Of a DNA stretch of 64,000 bases, positions 33,759 to 47,807 are shown one piece after another. Below the pieces are notes generated by a model. That model was not told the DNA's origin. It saw only the letters and a program-made list of their open reading frames with translations, and searched no databases. The DNA comes from Archangium sp. (GTDB lineage Bacteria; Myxococcota; Myxococcia; Myxococcales; Myxococcaceae): positions 3,873 to 67,872 of the forward strand of contig NZ_DASUNC010000017.1 of the NCBI RefSeq assembly GCF_036277355.1, written 5' to 3'. Numbering within the stretch: the stretch's first letter is position 1; each line of letters opens with the position of its first letter. The position numbers and the translations under genes are program-made.

Positions 33759-35264
33759 TCAAAGGCCTATCACCGACACCGGCGTGCTGCGGTTGGTGGT
33801 CGTCCCATCCCCCAGCTGGCCGTAGGCATTGTGGCCGCAGGTCTTGAGGGTGCCGTCCCCCGCCATCGCCAGGAGGTGGCCGGCCACCTCGATGAGCGCG
33901 ATGCCCGTGAGGCCCGGCACCAGGTAGGGGGCCAGCCGGTTGGTGGTCGTCCCGTCACACACCTGACCAAAGGCGTTGTAGCCCCAGGTCCGCACGGTGC
34001 CATCGCTCTTCAGTGCCGCCGAGTGATTGAACGCCGCGATGCGGGTGATGCCGCTGAGGCCCGGCACCGTCACCGGCGTCAACCGGTGGGTGGTGGTTCC
34101 GTCTCCGATGGCACCGTAGCCGTTGTAGCCCCAGGCCCGCACGGTGCCGTCACTCATCACCGCCATCGAGTGGTCGCTCCCCGCGGTGGCCTGGGTGACC
34201 CCCACGAGGCCCGGGACCGTCACCGGCGTCAGGCGGTTGGTGGTGGTTCCATCCCCGATCTGGCCGAAGTTGTTGGCGCCCCAGGTCCGCACGGTGCCGT
34301 CCGTCTTCAGCGCCACCGCGTGGTAGAAGCCCCCGGAGAGGGTGCTCACCCCGGTGAGGCCCGACACCTTCACCGGCGTCAGGCGGTTGGTGGTGGTTCC
34401 GTCCCCCAACTGGCCCGAGCTGTTCAGGCCCCAGGCCCACACGGTGCCGTCGTTCTGCAACGCCAGGGAGAAATAGAGGCCCGCGGAGATGGCGGTGATG
34501 CCGGAGAGGCCCGGCACCCTCACGGGCGTCAGACGGTTGGTGGTGGTGCCGTCCCCCAGCTGGCCCGAGCCGTTCAAGCCCCAGGTCCACACGGTGCCGT
34601 CCGTCTTCAGCGCCATCGAGTGCCCACCATTGGCCGAGAGCGCCATGACGCCGCTCAGGCCCGACACCGACACCGGCGTCGAGCGATGGGTGGTGGTGCC
34701 ATCTCCCACCGCGCCGTTGGTGTTGTAACCCCAGCCCTTGACGGTGCCGTCGCTCTTGAGCGCCAGGGAGTGCGAGCCGCCTCCGGCGACGGCTCGACAG
34801 GTCTGCGTCACCGATTGGGTGAGGACCTTCGACGTGGCGTAGCAGGTGGTGCGGTTGCCCGCGCTGTCGATGACCATGGGCCAGGCCTTCACCTGGAAGG
34901 TCTGCGTCCCACAGCCCATCTCCCCGCTGAAGTACCAGGTGCCCGAGCTCCCCACCCGCTCCTCCACGGCCTGCAGCACCCCTCCCAGCGTGTACTCCAG
35001 CCGCACCGCGTTGGCCCCGGTGGACACCCCGAAGGAGCCGCTCCCCGCCACCACGAACTCGTAGGAGCTGATCCCGGAGATCGTCAGGGTGGAGACGCTC
35101 AGCCCCGCGCACAGCTCCGACTCCCGGGTGCCCAGGGGCTCCTCCGGGAGCGCCCCCATCTCCTCTGGATTGCCACAGGCCACCACCAGCCCCACACACA
35201 ACAAGAACCATGAGCGGAAACGGATGGCCGGTCGCGACACGGGGACTCCTCTTCGAAAATCCAT
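33759..35264 (-). CDS. RCC1-repeat (beta-propeller) lipoprotein
   Basis: Lipobox LLCVGLVVAC|GN. Seven or more repeats of GWG.N..GQLGDGTTTNRLTPV.V.GL. ATG at 35264; the track's 35498 extension was rejected. Confidence 0.75.
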   Translation of the reverse strand: MDFRRGVPVSRPAIRFRSWFLLCVGLVVACGNPEEMGALPEEPLGTRESELCAGLSVSTLTISGISSYEFVVAGSGSFGVSTGANAVRLEYTLGGVLQAVEERVGSSGTWYFSGEMGCGTQTFQVKAWPMVIDSAGNRTTCYATSKVLTQSVTQTCRAVAGGGSHSLALKSDGTVKGWGYNTNGAVGDGTTTHRSTPVSVSGLSGVMALSANGGHSMALKTDGTVWTWGLNGSGQLGDGTTTNRLTPVRVPGLSGITAISAGLYFSLALQNDGTVWAWGLNSSGQLGDGTTTNRLTPVKVSGLTGVSTLSGGFYHAVALKTDGTVRTWGANNFGQIGDGTTTNRLTPVTVPGLVGVTQATAGSDHSMAVMSDGTVRAWGYNGYGAIGDGTTTHRLTPVTVPGLSGITRIAAFNHSAALKSDGTVRTWGYNAFGQVCDGTTTNRLAPYLVPGLTGIALIEVAGHLLAMAGDGTLKTCGHNAYGQLGDGTTTNRSTPVSVIGL

Positions 35265-35395
35265 GCACGGAGGGCGGAAAACAACACCCACAGTGTATTC
35301 CTGATTTAAAAAGAGAACAAGTTGCTCCGGGAGATGCGGCACAGGCGGAGTTGCTCCCCGTTGGGGCACCGGCGTTCTGCTGACGCCTTGCATCG

Positions 35396-36040
35396 GTGCT
35401 CGCCCTCGCCGAGCATCGGTTCGTGCCTCCACGCCCCTCCGAATCGAGCGCGGACACGGGTTCTCCACCGCCTCGCGTCCTGGCAGACGTCTTCGCACGC
35501 TCGCGCGTCCATGATGGGGCGCTCGTGCTTGGCGCCGCGCTGTTCACCGCGTTGCTCGCGCAGGTGGCCATCGCGGTGCCGGGCTCCCCGGTGCCCATCA
35601 CGGGCCAGACGCTCGCGGTCGTCCTCACGGCCGCCGCGCTCGGTCCCATGCGAGGCATGGCCGGACAGCTCGCCTACGTCCTGCTCGGGGCGGTGGGACT
35701 GCCATTCTATTCCAAGGGAGCCAGCGGCTGGGCACAGGTGCTCGGGCCGACCGGCGGCTACCTGGTGGGCTTCATCCCAGCCGCTTTCCTCATGGGCCTC
35801 GCGGCGCGGCGCGGCTTGGACAGGGTGGCGTGGAAGGCCGTCCCACTCTTCCTCGCGGGCCAGCTCGTCATCCTGGCCATCGGCGTGCCTTGGCTCTGCG
35901 TGGCGGCCCCGCTCGACCTCGCCACGGCCCTGCACAAGGGCTTTTTGCCCTTCCTCCCCGGTGGGTTGCTCAAGGCAACCCTTGCCGGCCTGTGGATGCC
36001 TCTCGCCTGGGGGCTCATACGACGAAGTCGCTCCAAGTGA
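35396..36040 (+). CDS. bioY: BioY-family biotin transporter (ECF S-component)
   Basis: LGPMRGMAGQLAYVLLGAVGLPFYSKGASG...LGPTGGYLVGFIPAAFLMG matches the BioY signature. The true start may be the internal GTG (VLADVF...), giving ~187 aa. Confidence 0.7.
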   Translation: MLALAEHRFVPPRPSESSADTGSPPPRVLADVFARSRVHDGALVLGAALFTALLAQVAIAVPGSPVPITGQTLAVVLTAAALGPMRGMAGQLAYVLLGAVGLPFYSKGASGWAQVLGPTGGYLVGFIPAAFLMGLAARRGLDRVAWKAVPLFLAGQLVILAIGVPWLCVAAPLDLATALHKGFLPFLPGGLLKATLAGLWMPLAWGLIRRSRSK

Positions 36041-36104: not shown

Positions 36105-38405
36105 TCAGTCTCCAAGCACCGTCGCGACGGCCCGGTACTCCGGCCGCAGGATCCGCTCGGCCTCCGTGCCGGCCACGACCACCGGGAGCATCGCGCCCTC
36201 CAGCCCCGCCTCGGCCGAGAGCTTCACCGCGATGGGCGCCATCACCTTCGCCTCGATGAGCCGCTTCAAGGGCCGGGCGCCCAGCTTCGGGTCGTACCCG
36301 TGACGGGCCAGCCAGGCCCGCGCGTCCGGCTCCACCACCAGCCGCAGTCTGCGCCGCAACAGCCCCGCCCGGGAGGCCGCCTTCTCCAGCTCCAGGTCGA
36401 CGATCCGCAGCACATCCGCCTCCGACAGCCGGCGGAACGGAATGACGTGATCGATGCGGTTGAACAGCTCCGGCCGGAAGGTCTGCCGGATGGCGCGCAT
36501 GAAGTCCTCCGAGCCGCGCTCGGCCCCGAAGCCCGTGGGCTCCGACTGCTCGACGCCGAGGTTGCTCGTCATGCACACCACCGTCATCCGGAAGTCCACC
36601 AGCCTCCCGAGGCTGTCCGTCAGCCTCCCCTCCCCCAGGATGCCGAGCAGCAGATCGAACACCTCGGGGTGCGCCTTCTCGATCTCATCGAAGAGCACGA
36701 GCGACATCGGCTGTTGCCGCACCCGCTCGGCGAGGCTGGTGATTCCCGGGCCCACCTCCATCAACCGCTGGGCCGAGCCGGGCTGCATGTACTCGGACAT
36801 GTCGAGCCGGATCATCCGGTCCTCGTTGCCGAAGAGCGTGCGCGCGAGCTGCTTGGACAGCTCCGTCTTCCCCACGCCCGTGGGCCCGGCGAAGAGCAGC
36901 GTGCCCACCGGCTTCTCCGGATCGTTGAGCCCCGCCTTGAAGCGCGCCAGCACGCCCGCCGCCAGCTCGCAGGCGCGATCCTGCCCGATGACCCCCTGCC
37001 GCAACTGTCCCGCCAGCGAGGCCTGCTCTGCGGGCACCTCGTCACTGATGAGCTGGAGCGGCAGCCCCGTGTAGCGCGCGTAGGCCTCGGAGACATCGCG
37101 CGGATAGAGCGTCCGGGCCTTGCCCGGCTCGCCCTGCTGCTCCAGCCAGTCGAGGAAGCGGAAGGCCTTGCCCGGAAACAGGCTGTCGCGCTGGAACGTC
37201 TCCAGGTGCCCGACGAGCTGTCTCAACCCCAGGGCATGGATGCTCACCCGGCTGCGCTTCGCCGCCTGGTAGCGCAGCATCAGCTCCGGCACCTGCGAGG
37301 CCGGCGGAGGCTCGATGCGGATGATGCGGAAGGGCCGCAGCGACTCCGGGAAGCGCCGCTGGCAGCGCTCCAGCTCGGCCTCGGTGCACTCGGCGATCAG
37401 GGAGATCTCCCCGCTCATCGCCGCGGGCAGCAGCAGATCTCCAATGGACGAGCCGTCCGGCTGGGGCGCGAGGATCGACGTGAGCCGGTCCACGTAGAGG
37501 TAGTCGTTCTCGTTCGAGAGCGCGTCGACGATCTTCAGGCAGCGCTCCTGCCACATGCCCAGGTACACCATGCCGGCGACGATGCGCTCGGCGCTGGTGC
37601 GCCAGATCCTCGGCAGGCTCACCTTCTTGTCCTCACGCCGCTGCTCGGCGATCAGCCGCGCGAGCTTCAGCACCTGGCTCGTCTTGCCGGAGCCCGGGCC
37701 CCCCACGAGCAGCAGGGACTGCGGTGGCTGGCGCTGCGCGTGGGCGAGCCAGGAGCGCATCGACTCGGCGTCGTACACCAGTGCCGGCTGCCTGCCTCCC
37801 AGGGCGCGCGAGGTCAGCTCCTCGCTGATCTGCTCGAGGACTTCAGGAGGCCGCTCCTCGCCCGGGCCGCGCCGGTTGTCCCGCAGCAGCCAGCCGAGGT
37901 CCCAGCTGCTCACGTACTCCGCGCCCTCGTGGCGGAAGTCGTACAGCCCCTTGGGCTTCTCCCCGAGCAGCACGGTGGTGAGCGCGTTCTGCAACACCTC
38001 GCGCGCGATGGAGAGCTCCTCGAGCACGAACGACCAGCCGAAGCGCGGCACCCGCACGCGCCAGGCACCGCTCTCCAGCTTCCCGTAGACGTACGTCAGC
38101 TTGAGCGGGATCAGCGCCTTGGCGATCACCGGCCGCTTCTTGTGCACGGTCTGCGGGTGGATCTCCACGGTGATGGTCCGCGCCTCCAGGCTCTCCTCCC
38201 AGAGGAACCGACCGAGCCCGGCTGGGTTCTCGAGCATCATCAACCGGATGCGCGTCTCGAGCAGCGCGTAGATCTCCGCCTCGCTGTTGCCGTAGGCCGA
38301 GGGCGGAGGATCATCGAAGAAGCTGTCCCAGACCGGCAGGAGCTGCCCGGTGAGCCGGCCATCGTGGTGGGTGGTGAAGTAGACGCGAAGGCTCTTGTCG
38401 CTCAT
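36105..38405 (-). CDS. ClpA/ClpV-like double-AAA+ ATPase, paralog 3 (unrecognised ~190-aa N-domain; no C-terminal extension)
   Basis: D1 Walker A LLLVGGPGSGKTS. D2 LLFAGPTGVGKTELSKQLA, Walker B LVLFDEIEKAHPEVFDLLL, sensor MTSNLG, FRPELFNRID. No ClpB middle domain (Walker A1 to A2 is ~280 aa). The ATG (MSDKSLRVY) overlaps the upstream stop as ATGA. Confidence 0.8.
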   Translation of the reverse strand: MSDKSLRVYFTTHHDGRLTGQLLPVWDSFFDDPPPSAYGNSEAEIYALLETRIRLMMLENPAGLGRFLWEESLEARTITVEIHPQTVHKKRPVIAKALIPLKLTYVYGKLESGAWRVRVPRFGWSFVLEELSIAREVLQNALTTVLLGEKPKGLYDFRHEGAEYVSSWDLGWLLRDNRRGPGEERPPEVLEQISEELTSRALGGRQPALVYDAESMRSWLAHAQRQPPQSLLLVGGPGSGKTSQVLKLARLIAEQRREDKKVSLPRIWRTSAERIVAGMVYLGMWQERCLKIVDALSNENDYLYVDRLTSILAPQPDGSSIGDLLLPAAMSGEISLIAECTEAELERCQRRFPESLRPFRIIRIEPPPASQVPELMLRYQAAKRSRVSIHALGLRQLVGHLETFQRDSLFPGKAFRFLDWLEQQGEPGKARTLYPRDVSEAYARYTGLPLQLISDEVPAEQASLAGQLRQGVIGQDRACELAAGVLARFKAGLNDPEKPVGTLLFAGPTGVGKTELSKQLARTLFGNEDRMIRLDMSEYMQPGSAQRLMEVGPGITSLAERVRQQPMSLVLFDEIEKAHPEVFDLLLGILGEGRLTDSLGRLVDFRMTVVCMTSNLGVEQSEPTGFGAERGSEDFMRAIRQTFRPELFNRIDHVIPFRRLSEADVLRIVDLELEKAASRAGLLRRRLRLVVEPDARAWLARHGYDPKLGARPLKRLIEAKVMAPIAVKLSAEAGLEGAMLPVVVAGTEAERILRPEYRAVATVLGD

Positions 38406-41400
38406 GGGGTCACCCGCTCGCTCATCCGCAGCCGCCACAGGGCCGGCAGGGCCTCGGCGGGATTCCTCACCCGATGGCTGCCGCTGTGGGTCAGCAGGTA
38501 GTCATCCAGCTCCAGCACCGACACCGCTCCCGGACGTGCGGGCGGCTCGAAGCGGTAGGCGCGCACGACGGGAGCCGCCGCCTCCGGATCCTCCGGGAGC
38601 GGGCTCACGCCCTCCTGGCGTGCCTTGTGGAAGGCCTGGAGCTTCACGGCATGCAGCGCGAGCAGCTCCGCGGGCGATGGCGCATTCGCCTCGTGAACGC
38701 GGACCTTGACGATCTCCGGGAGCCGGCCCGAGGACTGCCACACGTGCAGCCCGGCCTCGCCCTCGAAGAAGGGCCGCACGCCCGGGCCCACCAGCTTGAT
38801 CGCGGCATGCACGGGCTCCTGCATGGACAGGTGCAGGAACTCCCGGAGCTGCCGGGGCCCACCGGACACCAGGGCCCCACCGGGCAGGTGCGCGGCGAAG
38901 GACTCGATCTCCCCACGCGAGTGCGCATAGGCCGAGCAGAGCCACCGGGCGAGCAGCGACCCGGAGGACGCGCCCTGACGCCACTGGCCGAGCGGGAGCA
39001 GCTCCAACATGACCACGTGCTGATCCGGGCTGGAAATCCCCCGGAGGATGCGTTGCAGGAAGTAGACCTCCGACAGCGCATCGAGCATCTGCTCGCGGGA
39101 GACGGCCTTCACCGGCTCGAACGCGCGCCGGGCGAAGAGCCGGATGCGTGTCCCCTGGGACCAGCGATCGGCGCCAATCCGCTCCACGCCGAAACGCTCG
39201 GCCTCGATCATCTCCCGCTCCGTCTCCTCGGGAGCGCGGGCGAGAGACTCGAGTTGCGCCGCGAAGGCCTCCAGGTACATCCGCATCGCATCGAGCGTGA
39301 AGAGCGACTCGGCGTGATCGTGCTCGCCCGCCCGCAGACGCTCCAGGTGGAAGCGGACCTGCTCGGACAGGGCACCGAGCGCCTCGCTCTCGCGCAGCTC
39401 CTGCACCACCTCACGCAGCTCGAGCATCTTCTCGCGCAGCCGTGCGATGGGGAGCGACAGGAGTGGCTCCAGCGCGAAGCCCTGGGCCAGCGGCTCCCGG
39501 GGAATGAGCGCATCGGCCTGCGCCTCGAAGCGGCCCTCCCGGGTGTAGAGCTGGAACAGCCGCATGAGCGCCTGGGGTCCCCGGATGATGGCATCGGAGA
39601 GGACCTGCCCGACCTTCTCCTCCAGGTAGCGCTTCAGCGGCCGCGCGCCCAGGTGGGGATCGAAGGCCTCCTCGACGATGCGCCGCTTCACCGCCTCGTC
39701 GGCGGCCACGAAGATGTTGCGGGACACGAGCCCGTGCCGCGACAACAGTCGCGCCAGCTCCTTCTCCACCACCTTCTCGCCCACGTCCCGCGAGAGCGGC
39801 GAGAAGTGCACGATGCGATCGATGCGGTTGAAGAGCTCGGGCGGGAAGAACTCGCGCACGGCCCGGTCCGCATCCAGCTCCAGGGCGCGCGCGTCCGGCG
39901 CACCGAGCCCCACCGCCGGCTTGCGCCGCGCCCCGAGGTTGCTCGTCATCACGATGACGGTATGGGTGAAATCCGCCGTCTCGCCCGAGGCATCCGTCAA
40001 CCGGCCCTCGTCGAACGTCTGCAGCAGCAGGTTGAGCAGCGAGGGATGTGCCTTCTCGATCTCATCGAGCAGCACGAGCGAGAAGGGCTGCTCGCGGATG
40101 AGGCGCGTCAACCGGCCCTCGGGCTGCCAGGCGTCGCCCGTGAGCCGCGCGACGGCATCCGGCGTCTGGAACTCGCCCATGTCGAGCCGCACCAGCCGCG
40201 ACGCATCGCCATACAGGTAGCCGGCCAGCGCGCGGGCGAGCTCCGTCTTTCCCGTGCCCGTGGGGCCGGTGAACAGATAGACGCCGTAGGGCCGCCGGGG
40301 ATCCGTGAGTCCGGCATGGATGCGCGCGACGAGATCGCACGCCACGCGCACCGCCTCCGGCTGTCCCATCACCTTGCGCGACAGGGCCTCGTGGACCTCC
40401 TCGGGCACCAGCCGCTCCTGGGGGCGCAGGAGGAAGTCCGGCAGGCCCGTCCTGCGCGACAGGTGCGCGAAGAGCTCGCCGACGCCGAGCTCCCGGCCCG
40501 GGGCTCCCTGGTCCGTGGCCAGCTCGCGCAGCAGATCGAGCGCCTTGCCCGGAAGCGCGGACCCGGAGAAGAGCGTCCCCGCCTGCTCCAGCAGCACCGG
40601 GAAGAGCGGAGGGGACCAGGCGATGTGGTGCTTGGACTCCAGCTCGCGCGCCTCGTGCAGCAGCATGCGCAGTGTCTCGTCGGTGCGGGTGGAGCGCACG
40701 TGCACCTGGGTGAAGAGCGCGGCGAAGGACGGGGCGTCCGTCTCCAGCCGCTGGAGCTGCTCGGGCGTCACCGTGCCGGCGAGCGTGAGCTCTCCACGTG
40801 CCAGGGCTCCCTGGAAGAAGAGCGCGAGATTGGTGTCACTCTCCCGCGAGCGGCCGATGCGGCCGAAGGCATGCAGGTCCTCGATGAAGAGGATGCGCCG
40901 CCCTCCCCTCGTGTCCTCGAGCACCTTGAGGCAGCGCTGCTCCCAGTCGCCCACGTAGCTCATGCCGGCGATGATCCGCTTGCCGGCGATCGACCAGACC
41001 TCGGTCACCTTGTCCAGGTTGCGGTGGGTCTGGAAACCATCGGCCTCGAGCTGCTCGGCCACGAAGCGCTTGAGCAGGGTCCGCTTGCCGCAGCCGGGAG
41101 GACCCACGAGCAGCACCGGCGTGCGCCGCTCGCCTCCGAGCAGGAGCTGGAGTTGCTCCCGGTAGGGGCCGCGCGGCATGCCGGTATCGAGCGTGCCCTC
41201 CGCGGCCTGGAGGGTGAGGTTCGTCCCCAGCTTGTGCAGCACCTGGGTGCCGCCACCGGACTTCTTCTGCTTCTTCTTGCCGCCGGCCCGTTCCCGCCGG
41301 TCCTCGGCCTCCAGGTCGTCCCAGGGCCCCTTCTTCTTGCCGAGCTCGTCGAGCAGCGACTTCGGCTGGGCCATGAACGCGAGCGCCTTGAGGGTGTCCT

Positions 41401-41875
41401 TGCGGTTGGAGCGCAGGTCATCGTGCTCGTACGGCTCCAGCTGGGCCCAGGCACGGGTGAAGAAGACCTTCGCCTGCTCCTCGAGACTGGCGCCGGTATC
41501 GACCGGGAACCACTCGTGCTGGCGCGCGGGGTGGTAGGCGATGGTCATGAGCTCGTCGCGCGTGCGCCAGCGCGGCTCGAGGATGAGCGGGAAGAGACCG
41601 GACAGCCGCGGCGTCTCGGTTCCGGTGCGCACGCGCTTGAAATCCAGCTCGAGCTGTACCCGCTCCAGGCGGATGCCTCGGGGGAGCTGGAAGTACGACA
41701 GCTCCCGGACGGGCAGCTCGCCGATGATGCTCCGGAGATCCTCCACGAGCTTCTGCTGGAGCTTGACGGTGCTCCGTCCCTCTCGGCTGCGGGTATGGGG
41801 GCCGAGCGCGAGCGTGGTCCACCGGTAGCCACTGGAGGCATCGCGGCTCTGGTACACGCCAAGAGTGAGGTTCAT
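38402..41875 (-). CDS. ClpA/ClpV-like double-AAA+ ATPase, paralog 2 (unrecognised ~250-aa N-domain with Lys-rich linker; ~380-aa C-terminal extension)
   Basis: D1 VLLVGPPGCGKRT and ILFIEDLH. D2 YLFTGPTGTGKTELARALA, LVLLDEIEKAHPSLLNLLL, FFPPELFNRID. ATG (MNLTLGV) in an ATGA overlap with the upstream stop. Confidence 0.8.
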   Translation of the reverse strand: MNLTLGVYQSRDASSGYRWTTLALGPHTRSREGRSTVKLQQKLVEDLRSIIGELPVRELSYFQLPRGIRLERVQLELDFKRVRTGTETPRLSGLFPLILEPRWRTRDELMTIAYHPARQHEWFPVDTGASLEEQAKVFFTRAWAQLEPYEHDDLRSNRKDTLKALAFMAQPKSLLDELGKKKGPWDDLEAEDRRERAGGKKKQKKSGGGTQVLHKLGTNLTLQAAEGTLDTGMPRGPYREQLQLLLGGERRTPVLLVGPPGCGKRTLLKRFVAEQLEADGFQTHRNLDKVTEVWSIAGKRIIAGMSYVGDWEQRCLKVLEDTRGGRRILFIEDLHAFGRIGRSRESDTNLALFFQGALARGELTLAGTVTPEQLQRLETDAPSFAALFTQVHVRSTRTDETLRMLLHEARELESKHHIAWSPPLFPVLLEQAGTLFSGSALPGKALDLLRELATDQGAPGRELGVGELFAHLSRRTGLPDFLLRPQERLVPEEVHEALSRKVMGQPEAVRVACDLVARIHAGLTDPRRPYGVYLFTGPTGTGKTELARALAGYLYGDASRLVRLDMGEFQTPDAVARLTGDAWQPEGRLTRLIREQPFSLVLLDEIEKAHPSLLNLLLQTFDEGRLTDASGETADFTHTVIVMTSNLGARRKPAVGLGAPDARALELDADRAVREFFPPELFNRIDRIVHFSPLSRDVGEKVVEKELARLLSRHGLVSRNIFVAADEAVKRRIVEEAFDPHLGARPLKRYLEEKVGQVLSDAIIRGPQALMRLFQLYTREGRFEAQADALIPREPLAQGFALEPLLSLPIARLREKMLELREVVQELRESEALGALSEQVRFHLERLRAGEHDHAESLFTLDAMRMYLEAFAAQLESLARAPEETEREMIEAERFGVERIGADRWSQGTRIRLFARRAFEPVKAVSREQMLDALSEVYFLQRILRGISSPDQHVVMLELLPLGQWRQGASSGSLLARWLCSAYAHSRGEIESFAAHLPGGALVSGGPRQLREFLHLSMQEPVHAAIKLVGPGVRPFFEGEAGLHVWQSSGRLPEIVKVRVHEANAPSPAELLALHAVKLQAFHKARQEGVSPLPEDPEAAAPVVRAYRFEPPARPGAVSVLELDDYLLTHSGSHRVRNPAEALPALWRLRMSERVTP

Positions 41876-44800
41876 CGCGAGGCCCCCCGGATCACGTCGA
41901 GCGCGAAGGAGAATCCACTCTCGGCATCGAAGTTCCCGGAGCTTTCGAGCAGCAGGATGTGTTCGAGCAGGATCCGTTCGAGCGCCTGGAAGTGCTCCCA
42001 GGAATCCAGCTGAAGCTTGCGTGCGCCATCGCACAGCAGGAGCTCGCCGCCGGGAACGTACTCACGGATGGCTGGCATCAACCGCAGCTCCCGGAGATCC
42101 TTGCCGGCCCGTTGTGCCGGAGGGGCGATGGCGGGCAGCTCGAGCTCCTTCTGGAACAGCTGGGTGGACATGGCAACGGGCCTGACCTCGACCTGGACCA
42201 GCTCGTCCTTCTCGGTGGGGGGATAACGATGAACCCCGGCCTCGAGCGCCAGGAAGGCCCCCGCGTTCGTGCCGTTGACCAGGAGCAGTACCTCCCGGAA
42301 GGCCCGCGAGGGCGCGGCCAGCTCCTTCCGAAGCTGCTCCGCACCCAGCAGCTTGTCATCCCACTTGCGCTTGCGCTCGCTGCTCTTGTGGGTGACCGAG
42401 ACGCGGCCCTCGACCGTCCAGCCGCGCCGGGGCGCATCCTCGATCAGCGGCAGGATCCAGCGCTCGAGGCCGCGTGTCTCCCCCGCCTCCTGGAGGATGA
42501 GCGTGATCTGATCCCTCCGGGGCTGGAGCGCGAGCAGCACGGACGGCATCAGCTGGCGGATGGCCTTCATCTGCGCGTGGGCCTCGTCCACGAAGGGGGC
42601 GGCATCCTGCTGCTCGAAGAGCGCCATCAGCGCCAGCTCCTCGGCGGCCAGGAGCGATGCGCGCAACCGCCGGGCCTCGCTCCAGAGCGCCTCGAGCCGG
42701 CTGTGCTCGTACTGGAGTTGTCCCAGCGAGGACGCCTCGGGCCCTCGCATCTTCTTCTGATCTCCCTGGGCGAGCTGGGCCACCAGGAAGTGGATCCGCT
42801 CCCCCACGTTCTCCACGGCATCCATCCGGAAGAGCCTGTCGATGACCCGCCGCTGCTCCTGCAGGTCGCGCACGAGCTCGAGCTGGTTGCGCGCCGTCTT
42901 CGGGCTGCCCTTGGTCAGCTCCACGGCAATGCCCCCGGGACGGGAGGCGATCACCACACGGCCGCCCTGGGCCTCGGGCCCGGCCTCGGAGAGCATGCGG
43001 GCGATGGGGACGACGAGCTGCTGGTCCAGGTGCCTGCGCATGGCCCGGGCGCCATAGGCCTCCTGGTAGCCGGAGGTGGCGAGCGCGGTGGTGATCTCCG
43101 GAGGCACCTCGAGCGAGACCCCGCGCTGCATCAACCCGCGCCGCTGCCGCAGCTTGTCCACGCCGAGCCGGGCCACCTCCGCCGCCTGCTCGGGGGTGAG
43201 CGGGTGGAAGGGAATGAGCTGGTCGATGCGGTTGACGAACTCGGGGCGGAAGTGACGGTGCACCTCGCGCAGGTAGTACGAGGCGTCATCCACCGAGGTA
43301 GCGCCGATGCCCAGCGGGGAGCGGCGGTGCGCCACGCCGAGGTTGCTCGTCATGATGATGATGGCGTTGTGGAACCACGCCGTCTGCCCCCGGGCATCGG
43401 TGAGCCGCCCTTCCCCGCACACCTGCAGGAGCAGATCGAAGACGGCCGGGTGGGCCTTCTCGATCTCGTCGAGCAGGAGCACGCAGAAGGGCTGCTGGCG
43501 GACGCGGCGCGTGAGCAGCCCCTCGCCCTGGGTGTTGCCCCGGATGAGCCGTTCGGCGGCCCAGCCGTCCATGAACTCGCTCATGTCGAAGCGGAACATC
43601 CGCTCCGGCGAGCCGAAGAGGAACGTGGCGAGCAGCCGCGCGAGCTCGGTCTTCCCGACGCCGGTGGGGCCCACGAAGAGGAAGGTGGCCAGCGGCTTGC
43701 CCTGGGGCTGGAGGCCCGCCTTCACCATGCACAGCGTCTCCACGACGCGGCGCACCGCCGTCTCCTGGCCCACGAGCTGGCGGCGGAAGTGCGCCTCGAC
43801 CTCCCCGGCGAGCAGCGCGCGGTCCTCGCGCAACAGGAACTCGGGGACGCCCGTCTTGAGGCTGAAGAGCGAGTACACGCGCTCGCGGGTGAGCAGGGGC
43901 ACCTCGCCCGTGCCCGTGCGCTCCTGTTGCAGTCCCGCGCGCATCTCCTCGTACAACCGGATCGCCTTGCCGGGCAGCGCGCGGCTCGGCAGGTAGCGCT
44001 CGGCCAGGTCCACGAGCGGATCCACCGCGTCGTCGGCCAGCGAGTACCGCGAGGGCTCGGCCTTGCGTTGCCAGACCGTCCGGCTCCGGAGCGCCTCACG
44101 GGTCTGCCGCGTCCCCAGGGGCTCCAGGCGCACGCGGCCGAGCACCGCGAAGAGGCCCGGGTGCCGGTTCTCGAGCAGATCCAACGACTCGGGGGTGAGC
44201 TCTCCGAGGAACCGCACCCGGCCCTCCTCCAGGAAGGGCTTCATCGCGCCGGGGATGTCCACGTGCTCCGAGGACTGCTGCGCGAGCAGCTCCCCGAGGT
44301 TCTCGAAGTACAGGACGGCGTCGAGCTCCTGTGCCGCACGCATGACCCGCAGCACGCGCTCCTGCCACTGGCCGAAGCCGGACATGCCGGCGATCAACCG
44401 CGAGCCGCTCGTGGCGTACACGCGCCGCTCGCGGCCGGCCTTGCGCTCGGCGCGGAGCCACGCGAGGAGCAGCTCCGTCTTGCCCACGAGCTCCGGGCCC
44501 ACGAGCAGCACGCCCTGCCGCTTCTCGCCGCCGAGCAGGCCGGACAGCAGCGCGAGCTCGGTGTCCCGGGCGATGAGGGGCGGTCCGTGCCGGGCCTCGT
44601 CGCGATCATGCAGCACCGTGGAGACGGAGAGGAGCACCTGGTGCGCCTGCTCCCGCTTGAGCTTCTCCTCCAGCTTCTTCTTCGCCTGCCGGGCCTTGTC
44701 GCTCGCGTCCTGACGCCGGAGCGCGAGCTGGACGGTCTCGAGCGTCACGAACTTCGGAGGCAGCAGCCGCAGGTACTCATGGGCGGCCGGCTCGCGCGCG

Positions 44801-45234
44801 GCGAGCAACCGCTCCACGTCCGCGCGCACCGTCTCGCGCACGTCCTGGTTCCTGCCCACGTAGACCGTGTGATCGATCGCCGGCACGAAGACCCACGTCT
44901 CCTCCGCGAGCGGCACGACGATGGTGGCCAGCTCGACGGTGACGGGCTTGACGAGCTTCTTGGGGAGATCGGCGCGGGGGGCGAGGATCTCCAGCATCTC
45001 GAGCCGCACCTGCTCGGGGAAGGAGAAGCGGGCCAGCTCCTCGGGCTCCACCCTGGACAGGTGCTCCTCGAGGAACAGGCGCTGCTCGCCCAGACAGGCC
45101 TCGAGCGTGGGCGCGTGGCTCGTCAGGGTGGGCGCGGCCACGGGGAACACCTGGTGGTCCCCGTTCCACAGCTGCTGGCAGACGAGCGGCGTGGAGAACT
45201 CGAGCGTCCCGGGGACGGCATTGGAAGAAGCCAT
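41872..45234 (-). CDS. ClpA/ClpV-like double-AAA+ ATPase, paralog 1 (unrecognised ~240-aa N-domain; ~350-aa C-terminal extension)
   Basis: D1 VLLVGPELVGKTELL. D2 FLFVGPTGVGKTELARLLA, VLLLDEIEKAHPAVFDLLL, MTSNLG, FRPEFVNRID. It is the first gene of the three-gene unit. Confidence 0.8.
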   Translation of the reverse strand: MASSNAVPGTLEFSTPLVCQQLWNGDHQVFPVAAPTLTSHAPTLEACLGEQRLFLEEHLSRVEPEELARFSFPEQVRLEMLEILAPRADLPKKLVKPVTVELATIVVPLAEETWVFVPAIDHTVYVGRNQDVRETVRADVERLLAAREPAAHEYLRLLPPKFVTLETVQLALRRQDASDKARQAKKKLEEKLKREQAHQVLLSVSTVLHDRDEARHGPPLIARDTELALLSGLLGGEKRQGVLLVGPELVGKTELLLAWLRAERKAGRERRVYATSGSRLIAGMSGFGQWQERVLRVMRAAQELDAVLYFENLGELLAQQSSEHVDIPGAMKPFLEEGRVRFLGELTPESLDLLENRHPGLFAVLGRVRLEPLGTRQTREALRSRTVWQRKAEPSRYSLADDAVDPLVDLAERYLPSRALPGKAIRLYEEMRAGLQQERTGTGEVPLLTRERVYSLFSLKTGVPEFLLREDRALLAGEVEAHFRRQLVGQETAVRRVVETLCMVKAGLQPQGKPLATFLFVGPTGVGKTELARLLATFLFGSPERMFRFDMSEFMDGWAAERLIRGNTQGEGLLTRRVRQQPFCVLLLDEIEKAHPAVFDLLLQVCGEGRLTDARGQTAWFHNAIIIMTSNLGVAHRRSPLGIGATSVDDASYYLREVHRHFRPEFVNRIDQLIPFHPLTPEQAAEVARLGVDKLRQRRGLMQRGVSLEVPPEITTALATSGYQEAYGARAMRRHLDQQLVVPIARMLSEAGPEAQGGRVVIASRPGGIAVELTKGSPKTARNQLELVRDLQEQRRVIDRLFRMDAVENVGERIHFLVAQLAQGDQKKMRGPEASSLGQLQYEHSRLEALWSEARRLRASLLAAEELALMALFEQQDAAPFVDEAHAQMKAIRQLMPSVLLALQPRRDQITLILQEAGETRGLERWILPLIEDAPRRGWTVEGRVSVTHKSSERKRKWDDKLLGAEQLRKELAAPSRAFREVLLLVNGTNAGAFLALEAGVHRYPPTEKDELVQVEVRPVAMSTQLFQKELELPAIAPPAQRAGKDLRELRLMPAIREYVPGGELLLCDGARKLQLDSWEHFQALERILLEHILLLESSGNFDAESGFSFALDVIRGASR

Positions 45235-45289: not shown

Positions 45290-46435
45290 ATGGCGCATGT
45301 GAATCCAAGCATCTTCCAGTCCGCGCTCGAGCGGCGGTTGCGCGACGAGCTCCTCGCGGGCGAGGACACCCAGCGGGCGCTGCGGCATGTGGACGCGGTG
45401 CCGGGCAGGTTCGGCGGCGTCGCGAGGCAGAGGCAGCTGCTCTCGAACGCCTTCAAGCTGACGCGCCCGGTGGCCCCGCGGGTCCTGGATGCGCTGGCCG
45501 CCTGCAAGGAGGTCCTGGGCCACGAGGGACCCGTGGATGTGTTCGTCAACCCGGAGCCCATGATCCGGGCCGCGGCGGTGCAGGCCCCGCCGGACACTCC
45601 CGCCATCGTTCTGTCCTCCCGGCTCCTGGAGGTGTTCCAGGAGGCCGAGCTGCGCTTCATCCTCGGGCACGAGCTCGGGCACCTCGCCTTCGAGCACTTC
45701 ACCCTGCCCCTGCCGGCCACGGCCCTGGCCTGGGACGGAGAGGATGGACGATTCGTCTCCCCCGCCACGGCGCTCGGGCTGTACCGGTGGAACCGGGCGG
45801 CCGAGGCCAGCGCCGACCGGGCGGGACTGCTGTGCTCCCGGGAGCTGGAGGCCTCCGCGGGCGTCCTGCTCGCACGGGTGAGCGGATGGACCGCAGGCTC
45901 GGTGAAGTCCGAGCTGCAGGCGGCGGCGCGCCATGTGGACGCGCTCCTGTCCGATCCATCGGCCCGTGAGCGGCCCAGTGAGGACGATGAGGTACTCGGC
46001 GGTTTCCGCGCCCATGCCTTCAGCCCATGGCGGGTGCGTGCCCTCGCGGCGTTCTCCAAGACGAGGACCTTCCTGAAGAGCGCGGGCCGCTATGCGAGCG
46101 AGGAGGGACTGTCGGACGAGGAGGCCGACACCCTGCTGGCGTGGGAGCTGCGGGAGCTGGATCCCTCCTACCTGGAGAAGTCCGAGCATCCCGAGCTGCT
46201 GAACCTGGCCCTGACGACGGGGAAGCTCCTGCCCGTGCTGGAGCAGCTGTACCAGGAGCGGGCGACCCTGTCCGAGCGGGCCCGGCTGGCGCAGCACTTC
46301 GCCTTGATGAAGGCCCCGGACGGCGTCGTGGACAACCTGGGTTACCTGGAGCTGAGGAAGGTGGCCGGAGCGCTGGCGGTGCCCACGTGGCTCGTGGACG
46401 AGGCCCTGCGCGGCGCCAGCAATCCCTTGGATTGA
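45290..46435 (+). CDS. Soluble M48-family zinc metallopeptidase-like protein
   Basis: HEXXH plus a downstream Glu: FILGHELGHLAFEH. ATG at 45290 with GGAGG 14 nt upstream (the track's 44921 start was rejected). No obvious TM. Transcribed divergently from the AAA+ triad, 55 bp away. Confidence 0.7.
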   Translation: MAHVNPSIFQSALERRLRDELLAGEDTQRALRHVDAVPGRFGGVARQRQLLSNAFKLTRPVAPRVLDALAACKEVLGHEGPVDVFVNPEPMIRAAAVQAPPDTPAIVLSSRLLEVFQEAELRFILGHELGHLAFEHFTLPLPATALAWDGEDGRFVSPATALGLYRWNRAAEASADRAGLLCSRELEASAGVLLARVSGWTAGSVKSELQAAARHVDALLSDPSARERPSEDDEVLGGFRAHAFSPWRVRALAAFSKTRTFLKSAGRYASEEGLSDEEADTLLAWELRELDPSYLEKSEHPELLNLALTTGKLLPVLEQLYQERATLSERARLAQHFALMKAPDGVVDNLGYLELRKVAGALAVPTWLVDEALRGASNPLD

Positions 46436-47066: not shown

Positions 47067-47807
47067 ATGAACGGCATGGCAGCGCCCGAGAAGCTCCTCC
47101 AGCCCGGTTGCCCCTGGTGGGACATGCGGGTCGCCTGGGGCGAGCCGAACGTGAAGTGGTGCGAGGCCACGGTCTGCGCCTGGGTGAACGAGCCCGCGAA
47201 CGCCTGGTCCAACCTCGCCTACCTGGCGGTGGCGTGCTGGTGTGCGTGGCGGTGGCGGCTCACGGGCAGCCGCGCCATGGGGCGCTTCGCTTGGACGACG
47301 GGGCTCGTGGGGGCGTTCTCCTTCGCCTTCCACGCGACGAACACCTTCGCCACCCAGCTCCTGGACTTCGTGGGGATGTACGTGCTCGCCTTCCTGCTGG
47401 TGGCGCTGAACCTACACCGCCTGGGTTGGCTGCCTCGCGAGCGGGTGGGCACGGTCCACGCCGGGCTGACGGTGGGGTGCACCCTGCTCGTGCCGGTGCT
47501 GAGGCTCGCCGGGTTCCCCTACCAGCTCGTGGTGCTGGGGGCGGTGCTGGTGATCGTGGGAACCGAGATCCGCCTGTCCCGGCGGAAGGACCCGCGAGAG
47601 TCGTACCGGGACTTCTGGCTCGCGGTGGGGCTGATGGCCGCGGCGGCGGCGTGCTCGGTGGCGGACGTGACGCGGGCGTGGTGCGACCCGGACAATCACT
47701 GGGTGCAGGGACATGCGGCCTGGCATGTCCTGAGTGCGCTCGCGCTGCTGTTCACCGCGCGGCACCACGCCGGGCTGGAGCTCAGGCGTCAGCGCCCTCG
47801 TAGCTGA
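47067..47807 (+). CDS. Alkaline ceramidase family (PF05875) 7-TM hydrolase
   Basis: WGEPNVKWCEATVCAWVNEPANAWSNLAY (W..WCE...NxxSN), FSFAFHATNTFATQLLD (His + Q.LD), and C-terminal HWVQGHAAWH (H..WH). Confidence 0.7.
   Translation: MNGMAAPEKLLQPGCPWWDMRVAWGEPNVKWCEATVCAWVNEPANAWSNLAYLAVACWCAWRWRLTGSRAMGRFAWTTGLVGAFSFAFHATNTFATQLLDFVGMYVLAFLLVALNLHRLGWLPRERVGTVHAGLTVGCTLLVPVLRLAGFPYQLVVLGAVLVIVGTEIRLSRRKDPRESYRDFWLAVGLMAAAAACSVADVTRAWCDPDNHWVQGHAAWHVLSALALLFTARHHAGLELRRQRPRS

Follow-up and report, generated by a model that had tools for sequence, protein, structure and literature searches.

What replaces the Clp N-terminal domain in three tandem AAA+ genes of Archangium sp., and what might it do there? 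The genes lie in a 64,000-nucleotide stretch of this myxobacterium (RefSeq assembly GCF_036277355.1, contig NZ_DASUNC010000017.1, positions 3,873 to 67,872 of the forward strand), which we call the window and to whose numbering all coordinates refer. Three adjacent minus-strand genes, here g1, g2 and g3, form a 9.1-kb block in the window, each encoding two tandem Hsp100-type AAA+ modules (D1 and D2) and a D2-small domain, preceded by an N-terminal region (g1N, g2N and g3N). A first-pass annotation, made from the letters alone, had called these regions unrecognised, mutually homologous and unlike Clp_N. The answer at which we arrive is that the genes represent a Clp/Hsp100 unfoldase class set by a new N-domain family, so far found in Myxococcota only: the N-domain is real and conserved, occurs in this architecture alone and belongs to no sequence family.

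An N-terminal domain without a sequence family

The three genes are as follows.

45234-41872, minus strand: g1, 1120 amino acids
41875-38402, minus strand: g2, 1157 amino acids counted from the ATG at 41875
38405-36105, minus strand: g3, 766 amino acids counted from the ATG at 38405

Stop and start codons overlap as ATGA between g1 and g2 (41872-41875) and between g2 and g3 (38402-38405), and the junctions are almost always of -4 nucleotides in the recovered loci, implying translational coupling and, through it, equimolar synthesis. The exact proteins are held at NCBI as 'AAA family ATPase' of an Archangium sp. metagenome-assembled genome (HEX5745330/29/28), and orthologues go by 'ClpC', 'ClpA' or 'hypothetical protein' in public records, where the N-domains carry no annotation.

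None of the Pfam and NCBIfam models touches the first ~190-210 residues of g1, g2 or g3, and profile searches with the N-regions against PDB sequences returned nothing meaningful. Clp_N produced no match in a Pfam scan at E<=10 of the three proteins and of 19-21 orthologous N-regions per paralogue (60 total), a scan that yielded scattered noise only; a confident Clp_N match was the observation that the first-pass annotation had named as telling against it. Its description of these regions as unrecognised and distinct from Clp_N is borne out, with no curated family or solved structure matched in sequence and an alpha/beta model for g3N. Its portrayal of Clp_N as a double-psi repeat was mistaken, Clp_N being an all-helical repeat. 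The lengths that it gave for g1 and g2 (~240 and ~250 residues) also need correction: those spans take in the first D1 helices, up to the Walker A motif. By alignment to the 'LEQYGIDLT...' start of ClpB D1, D1 starts at about residue 197 (g1), 212 (g2) and 186 (g3), and the accessory region consists of a globular part of ~172-178 residues and a basic linker of 10-35 residues. The Lys-rich linkers noted before D1 are indeed there (in g1 DKARQAKKKLEEKLKRE, residues 179-195; in g2 GKKKGPWDD...KKSG, residues 179-207), and distant g1 orthologues also keep a basic linker segment.

44719-45234, minus strand: g1 N-terminal globular domain, residues 1-172 (29 orthologues; no Pfam or PDB sequence match)
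44647-44718, minus strand: g1 Lys/Arg-rich linker, residues 173-196, containing DKARQAKKKLEEKLKRE (read from the sequence)
41348-41875, minus strand: g2 N-terminal globular domain, residues 1-176 (38 orthologues; no Pfam or PDB match)
41243-41347, minus strand: g2 basic linker, residues 177-211, with the KKKGPWDDL motif and a K-rich tract (read from the sequence)
37872-38405, minus strand: g3 N-terminal domain, residues 1-178, the modelled copy (AlphaFold2 model)

Across all orthologues the three versions are far apart in charge, with median isoelectric points (pI) of 5.0 for g1N (net -9), 9.8 for g2N (net +5) and 6.1 for g3N; that is, g1N is acidic, g2N basic and g3N near neutral. In g3N, surface-type motifs (PPPSAYG, RYLW, PRFGW, YDFR) are strongly conserved.

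Distribution

A profile search with g3N retrieved 102 clusters from 1.84 billion representative proteins. All matches were either N-terminal in AAA+ proteins of 746-796 residues of the same architecture, or were fragments or frameshifted calls, so that the search for other architectures proposed in the first-pass annotation found the g3-type domain confined to the N-terminus of one protein type. Three seemingly alternative architectures (P0091, P0102, P0118) were rejected as frameshifted or mis-called high-GC open reading frames (ORFs), and a g2-g3 fusion in locus L035 was rejected as a probable assembly or frameshift artefact. Frameshifted or truncated entries recur (P0002, P0007, P0012, P0018, P0021, P0022, P0091, P0102, P0118; L020, L029, L035); such damage to the operon is expected for high-GC, long-read assemblies, and it yields spurious short proteins and fake architectures.

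Every recovered locus is myxobacterial. About 28-30 of the 38 loci preserve the order g1-g2-g3, over a range from 95% to 38% identity, from Archangium (95%) through Cystobacter, Hyalangium and Vitiosangium to Polyangiales and Sandaracinaceae (38%). Among the recovered loci no flanking gene is conserved outside Archangiaceae, and the three genes are the functional unit.

Are the three N-regions copies of one domain?

The first-pass annotation had pointed to a recurring block in the three N-regions, and the peptides that it quoted were all found where it had placed them.

44986-45045, minus strand: block of g1, residues 64-83, PEELARFSFPEQVRLEMLEI, in register with the g2 and g3 blocks
41645-41716, minus strand: block of g2, residues 54-77, LPVRELSYFQLPRGIRLERVQLEL, in register with the g1 and g3 blocks
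38160-38216, minus strand: block of g3, residues 64-82, LGRFLWEESLEARTITVEI, in register with the g1 and g2 blocks

N-domain alignments were built from the operon loci of 38 myxobacterial genomes and compared profile to profile with hhalign. The comparison of g1N with g2N gave P=1.4e-3 (positions 55-154 versus 46-149), and that of g1N with g3N gave P=6e-3, or 4e-4 with a deeper g3 alignment (positions 33-144 versus 34-150); all of 60 block-shuffled controls scored below both pairs (0/60 and 0/60). The three N-domain alignments are colinear, and the registers of the block compose exactly (g1 i to g2 i-8 to g3 i-3, with i-3 also in the direct g1-g3 alignment), an agreement that a chance alignment of g2 and g3 would rarely give. 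When ~3000 ORFs from the loci were searched with hmmsearch, the best non-self matches of each N-domain hidden Markov model (HMM) were the paralogous N-domains (E 0.017-0.4).

Some observations weigh against a common origin. BLASTP among the N-regions found nothing significant, the hhalign probabilities for the N-domains are low (0.4-35%), and the resemblance of g2N to g3N (P=0.17, or 0.054 with the deeper g3 alignment) is not significant alone, its score not exceeding the block-shuffled controls (n=60). All of this would suit three unrelated N-regions, each paralogue having gained or evolved its own N-terminal domain, the block then being a coincidental likeness of amphipathic helix and strand patterns. 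We consider this highly unlikely, as two of the three pairs beat all 60 shuffles, three independent alignments share one register, the reciprocal best non-self HMM matches are the paralogues, and the regions agree in length, position and linker on proteins whose remainder is clearly a set of tandem paralogues. The three N-regions thus very probably diverged from a single domain, g1N linking the other two, a reading that draws on shared length, position and linker and on AAA+ cores that are clear tandem paralogues. A ~175-residue alpha/beta domain would then probably have been present in the ancestor gene before its triplication into the g1-g2-g3 operon. The earlier claim of mutual homology holds for the profile signals of g1-g2 and g1-g3 and for the shared register, but these signals are weak and g2-g3 does not reach significance by itself; likewise, the recurring block is above chance and in a transitively consistent register in all three alignments, but by a modest excess.

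Fold of the N-domain

Read from the alignments, each N-domain copy runs as strand, turn, strand, then, further on, a short strand and a long helix with G-x-[ST]-x-x-E as its cap; the strand/helix pattern recurs around residue 100. A likeness to the N-domain pattern of HicB-type antitoxins was recorded as an idea ahead of any structural search. AlphaFold2 reached a predicted local distance difference test (pLDDT) score of 36 for g3N from 5 sequences; with 38 of the 102 cluster matches as the alignment it gave a usable model (pLDDT 89.1; predicted template-modelling score 0.84). In this model g3N is one compact alpha/beta unit of two beta-beta-beta-alpha-beta modules with a hairpin between them.

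Module A and hairpin: strands 5-12, 18-22 and 36-39, helices 42-59 and 61-67, strand 74-82, hairpin 85-94
After the hairpin: strands 99-109, 115-119 and 124-128, helices 131-146 and 151-157, strand 163-168, helix 171-176

The recurring block corresponds to helix 61-67 and the edge strand 74-82, which closes module A. In the model at least one of the modules has the beta-beta-beta-alpha-beta fold of the HicB antitoxin N-domain; the domain, though unannotated, is not a fold orphan, and the HicB-like fold is a remote one. The structural check that the first-pass annotation had proposed for the isolated N-domains was thus answered in part: g3N is confidently modelled, and Foldseek searches of the model against PDB and BFVD gave no match with E<0.03. 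Two points count against the fold assignment: hhalign found no signal between module A and module B, because of which the reading as a tandem duplication draws only on the order of secondary-structure elements; and g3N is the sole modelled copy, from which the folds of g1N and g2N are carried over by alignment.

The AAA+ motors

Below the N-domain the three proteins are genuine ClpA/ClpB-type D1+D2 proteins. Pfam recognises AAA_2 (E 1e-39 to 1e-43) and ClpB_D2-small on D2, generic AAA on D1 and also AAA_lid_9, and the NCBIfam ClpA match is a single stretch across D1-D2. The NCBIfam ClpA and ClpB scores are of ~300-330 bits against equivalog cutoffs of 993-1417; among the equivalogs for ClpA, ClpB, ClpV, ClpG and ClpK (cutoffs 885-1900) none is matched at its cutoff, the best score being 329 bits.

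42955-44646, minus strand: g1 AAA+ core, D1+D2 with ClpA-like spacing (Pfam and NCBIfam matches)
39575-41242, minus strand: g2 AAA+ core (Pfam and NCBIfam matches)
36108-37871, minus strand: g3 linker and AAA+ core, without C-terminal extension (Pfam and NCBIfam matches)
44296-44316 (g1), 40874-40894 (g2) and 37482-37502 (g3): D1 Walker B
43510-43551 (g1), 40106-40147 (g2) and 36729-36767 (g3): D2 pore loop
43297-43320 (g1), 39896-39919 (g2) and 36519-36542 (g3): loop at the position of ClpA IGL

The Walker A motifs of D1 and D2 are 272-279 residues apart, a ClpA-like spacing (281 in ClpA) that implies the absence of an M-domain. In D1 the aromatic residue of the pore loop is kept (SGFG, SYVG, VYLG), the Walker A of g2 reads GKRT, and the Walker B is degenerate, with the catalytic Glu replaced (FEN in g1, catalytic pair E-N; IED in g2, pair E-D; VDR in g3, pair D-R). 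In D2 both Walker motifs are canonical in all three proteins, and the pore-1 loop is ~6 residues shorter than that of ClpB and devoid of the Tyr of GYVG; g2 alone carries a Trp in this loop (GDAWQPEG), the loop of g3 reading GPGIT. Judging from these motifs, there would be an unusual split between a 'grip' ring, in which the D1 aromatic is kept, and a 'motor' ring, the catalytically canonical D2.

At the position of the ClpA IGL tripeptide, as aligned via the BAP chimera (5ofo), the proteins carry LGI (g1), VGL (g2) and TGF (g3). Most orthologues in each of the three families retain the pattern x-G-[FIYLW], with IGP in some g1 and no Gly in a few g2; the ~20 distant full-length g3 homologues that were read have x-G-F. 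These conserved x-G-F loops suggest a partnership with ClpP.

C-terminal extensions and a possible link to the ribosome

Extensions of ~360-390 residues follow the AAA+ core in g1 and g2 only (g1C and g2C), and no Pfam or NCBIfam model covers them above threshold.

41875-42954, minus strand: g1 C-terminal extension, residues 761-1120, with the motif NGTNAGAFLALEAGVHRY at residues 987-1004 (hhalign to g2C)
38405-39574, minus strand: g2 C-terminal extension, residues 768-1157, with the motif VGPGVRPFFEGEAGLHVW (hhalign to g1C)

BLASTP found nothing significant between them, and hhalign identifies them as homologous (probability 95%, E 2e-8). Common to both is an invariant G..G...E.G.H block (NGTNAGAFLALEAGVHRY for g1, VGPGVRPFFEGEAGLHVW for g2) that resembles a segment of release factor 1 (RF1). 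This opens a different view of the operon, as a ribosome-associated unfoldase: the N-domains together with release factor-like C-terminal extensions would bind RNA or the ribosome, not proteins, the release factor-like module, devoid of GGQ, docking on stalled ribosomes while the nascent chain, or a bound factor, is pulled out or degraded by the AAA+ rings. Beyond the homology of g1C with g2C and the invariant block, several signals point this way. In 7 of 18 g1C orthologues the Pfam model PCRF appears below threshold (19.6 bits, where the cutoff is 24; best E 2.8e-4). The PDB profile search places RF1 of three species high among its borderline matches (E 0.03-1), though not first. In hhalign, g1C aligns with E. 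coli RF1+RF2 colinearly over 236 columns (release factor positions 10-261; P 7e-4), and the conserved block by itself reaches P 3e-4; the hhalign probabilities are 26-40%. The basic g2N (pI 9.8) would suit RNA as a ligand. In addition, Polyangiales g1 orthologues (L026:9800-9995, L027, L028, L030) end in a ~25-residue segment, for example LIEAIKLYRERTGVGLKEAKDYVDAL, resembling the C-terminal domain of L7/L12, with one match at 26.3 bits against a Pfam cutoff of 25.9. In the g3 homologue P0064, inspection by eye suggests a comparable insert between N-domain and D1 (residues ~215-250).

Set against these signals, everything that recalls a release factor lies under the curated thresholds (there is no match to the RF-1 Pfam domain, as well as PCRF falling short), g2C alone has no release-factor match, the RNA-binding domain of Hera scores equal to RF1 in the PDB profile search, the GGQ motif is absent, g3 has no extension at all, g1N is acidic, and the best fold match of the N-domain, HicB-N, is a protein-binding module. 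True homology of the g1/g2 C-terminal extension with class-I release factors is, on these alignments, about equally likely to be real or spurious, and RNA or ribosome binding by the N-domains together with the extensions is doubtful. A still more composite picture, a three-subunit Myxococcota Clp machine in which HicB-like N-domains and GGQ-less release factor-like modules would target stalled or damaged ribosomes or translation factors, with D2 hydrolysis driving the D1 pore loops and the client handed to ClpP, is unlikely as a whole. If true, the operon would be a bacterial analogue, built from other parts, of AAA+-driven ribosome-associated quality control, and real release factor-like C-terminal modules would directly link Clp proteolysis to the ribosome.

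Genome context

The genes around the operon in the window are the following.

45290-46435, plus strand: divergently transcribed M48-family metallopeptidase (HExxH; Pfam E 1.5e-8), directly upstream of g1
47067-47807, plus strand: ceramidase-family membrane protein
35396-36040, plus strand: BioY biotin transporter component, downstream flank
33759-35498, minus strand: RCC1-repeat protein, downstream flank

The M48 peptidase keeps its position in 13 Archangiaceae loci and not in more distant taxa, and the RCC1-repeat, BioY and ceramidase-family genes have no link to the operon in other genomes. Membership in a defence system was rejected, as the PADLOC matches (DolB, PDC-M37B, mad8) cover the generic D2 ATPase core only.

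What the N-domain may do

The clients that an Hsp100/Clp machine handles are determined by its N-domain. HicB-N binds a protein, HicA, and related HicB-like folds serve as immunity proteins and anti-CRISPRs. Given the N-terminal position of the domain and what HicB-like folds do, we lean toward a role in client, adaptor or partner recognition within a machine of cooperating paralogues. The domain would occupy the position of Clp_N in ClpA/ClpC, above the D1 ring and tethered by the basic linker, and would most likely form a binding platform there, deciding what enters the D1 pore, whether substrates, adaptors or partner subunits. The three proteins may act together, possibly in a mixed hexamer in which each brings a different recognition module, because the copies have diverged strongly and the genes are translationally coupled and co-inherited; the output would pass to ClpP through the conserved x-G-F loops. 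What we infer here, then, is homology of all three copies, a binding role, joint action and ClpP coupling.

Some facts sit uneasily with this proposal. The Tyr-less D2 pore loops question ordinary threading into ClpP. No gene for a binding partner, an adaptor or ClpP was found nearby, and no ClpP-like active-site motif occurs in the window. Finally, one Myxococcales lineage (L022, L024, L025) has only g2-g3 at the locus, with unrelated genes in the expected place of g1; the minimal unit may be g2-g3, or these genomes may have g1 at another site. The same lineage bears on another possibility, in which the N-domains are assembly or regulatory modules that order hetero-oligomerisation, for example by pairing of the acidic g1N with the basic g2N, or keep the rings in a resting state, and select no client. 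The complementary charges, the strict translational coupling and co-inheritance, and the degenerate D1 ATPase sites, which make a further layer of control plausible, would all be in keeping with such modules; yet the existence of a g2-g3-only lineage means that the g1N-g2N pairing is not essential, and the conserved g3N motifs fit an external ligand equally well. We therefore regard assembly modules as improbable, and recognition as the role to be preferred.

Comparison with known systems

To our knowledge, few N-domain types of Hsp100/Clp proteins are known, namely Clp_N, the zinc-binding domain of ClpX and, in ClpG/K, an additional N1 domain. With a fourth type, unrelated to these, the operon proteins would make up a new class of Clp unfoldases, the more so as three diverged versions occur in one coupled operon, whose motors have a D1 that looks inactive and D2 pore loops that lack Tyr. 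Such an operon would lend itself naturally to studies of AAA+ rings that are mixed or divide their labour, and the HicB-like fold, familiar from antitoxins and immunity proteins, would gain a role in AAA+ targeting. No description of this protein family turned up in literature searches.

With respect to fold, the nearest relative would be the HicB antitoxin N-domain (HicB_lk_antitox/UPF0150 fold), from which the present domains differ in several ways: there is no sequence-profile match (no HicB-type Pfam model matched at E<=10 in the 60 N-domain sequences), two modules are apparently fused in one 175-residue unit, the domain is followed by AAA+ D1 instead of a ribbon-helix-helix or helix-turn-helix DNA-binding tail, and there is no hicA neighbour, nor any conserved neighbour beyond the three genes.

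With respect to the motor, ClpA and ClpC are the closest. The likeness includes two AAA+ rings with AAA_2 and ClpB_D2-small, the lack of a ClpB-type M-domain, a hydrophobic x-G-[FIL] at the ClpA IGL site, a retained D1 pore-loop aromatic and an N-terminal accessory domain on a flexible linker. In contrast to ClpA/ClpC, Clp_N is missing here, the D1 Walker B Glu is replaced by N, D or R, the D2 pore loop is shortened and Tyr-less, g1 and g2 carry the C-terminal extensions of ~360-390 residues, and three coupled paralogues stand in place of one gene; the NCBIfam ClpA scores are 302-325 bits against the equivalog cutoff of 993. ClpG and ClpK, stand-alone disaggregases, share with the operon proteins a non-canonical N-terminal domain on an Hsp100 protein, and in their case it is this additional domain that provides Hsp100 specificity; they also keep Clp_N, the M-domain and canonical pore loops, and the scores of the present proteins against their NCBIfam models are only 210-250 bits, the cutoff being 1900.

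The closest precedent in kind is the definition of ClpI of Actinomycetota, a lineage-restricted class of double-ring Clp unfoldases likewise found by bioinformatics (Jiang and Schmitz, 2023; PMC10149685). According to its abstract, the N-domain of ClpI is variable, LGF loops for ClpP binding are present in some sub-classes and absent from others, the M-domain is of ClpC-like length, and the ATPase modules and unfolding/translocation motifs are intact. From ClpI the myxobacterial proteins stand apart by another N-domain fold, by the lack of an M-domain, by degenerate motifs and by their organisation as an operon of three paralogues.

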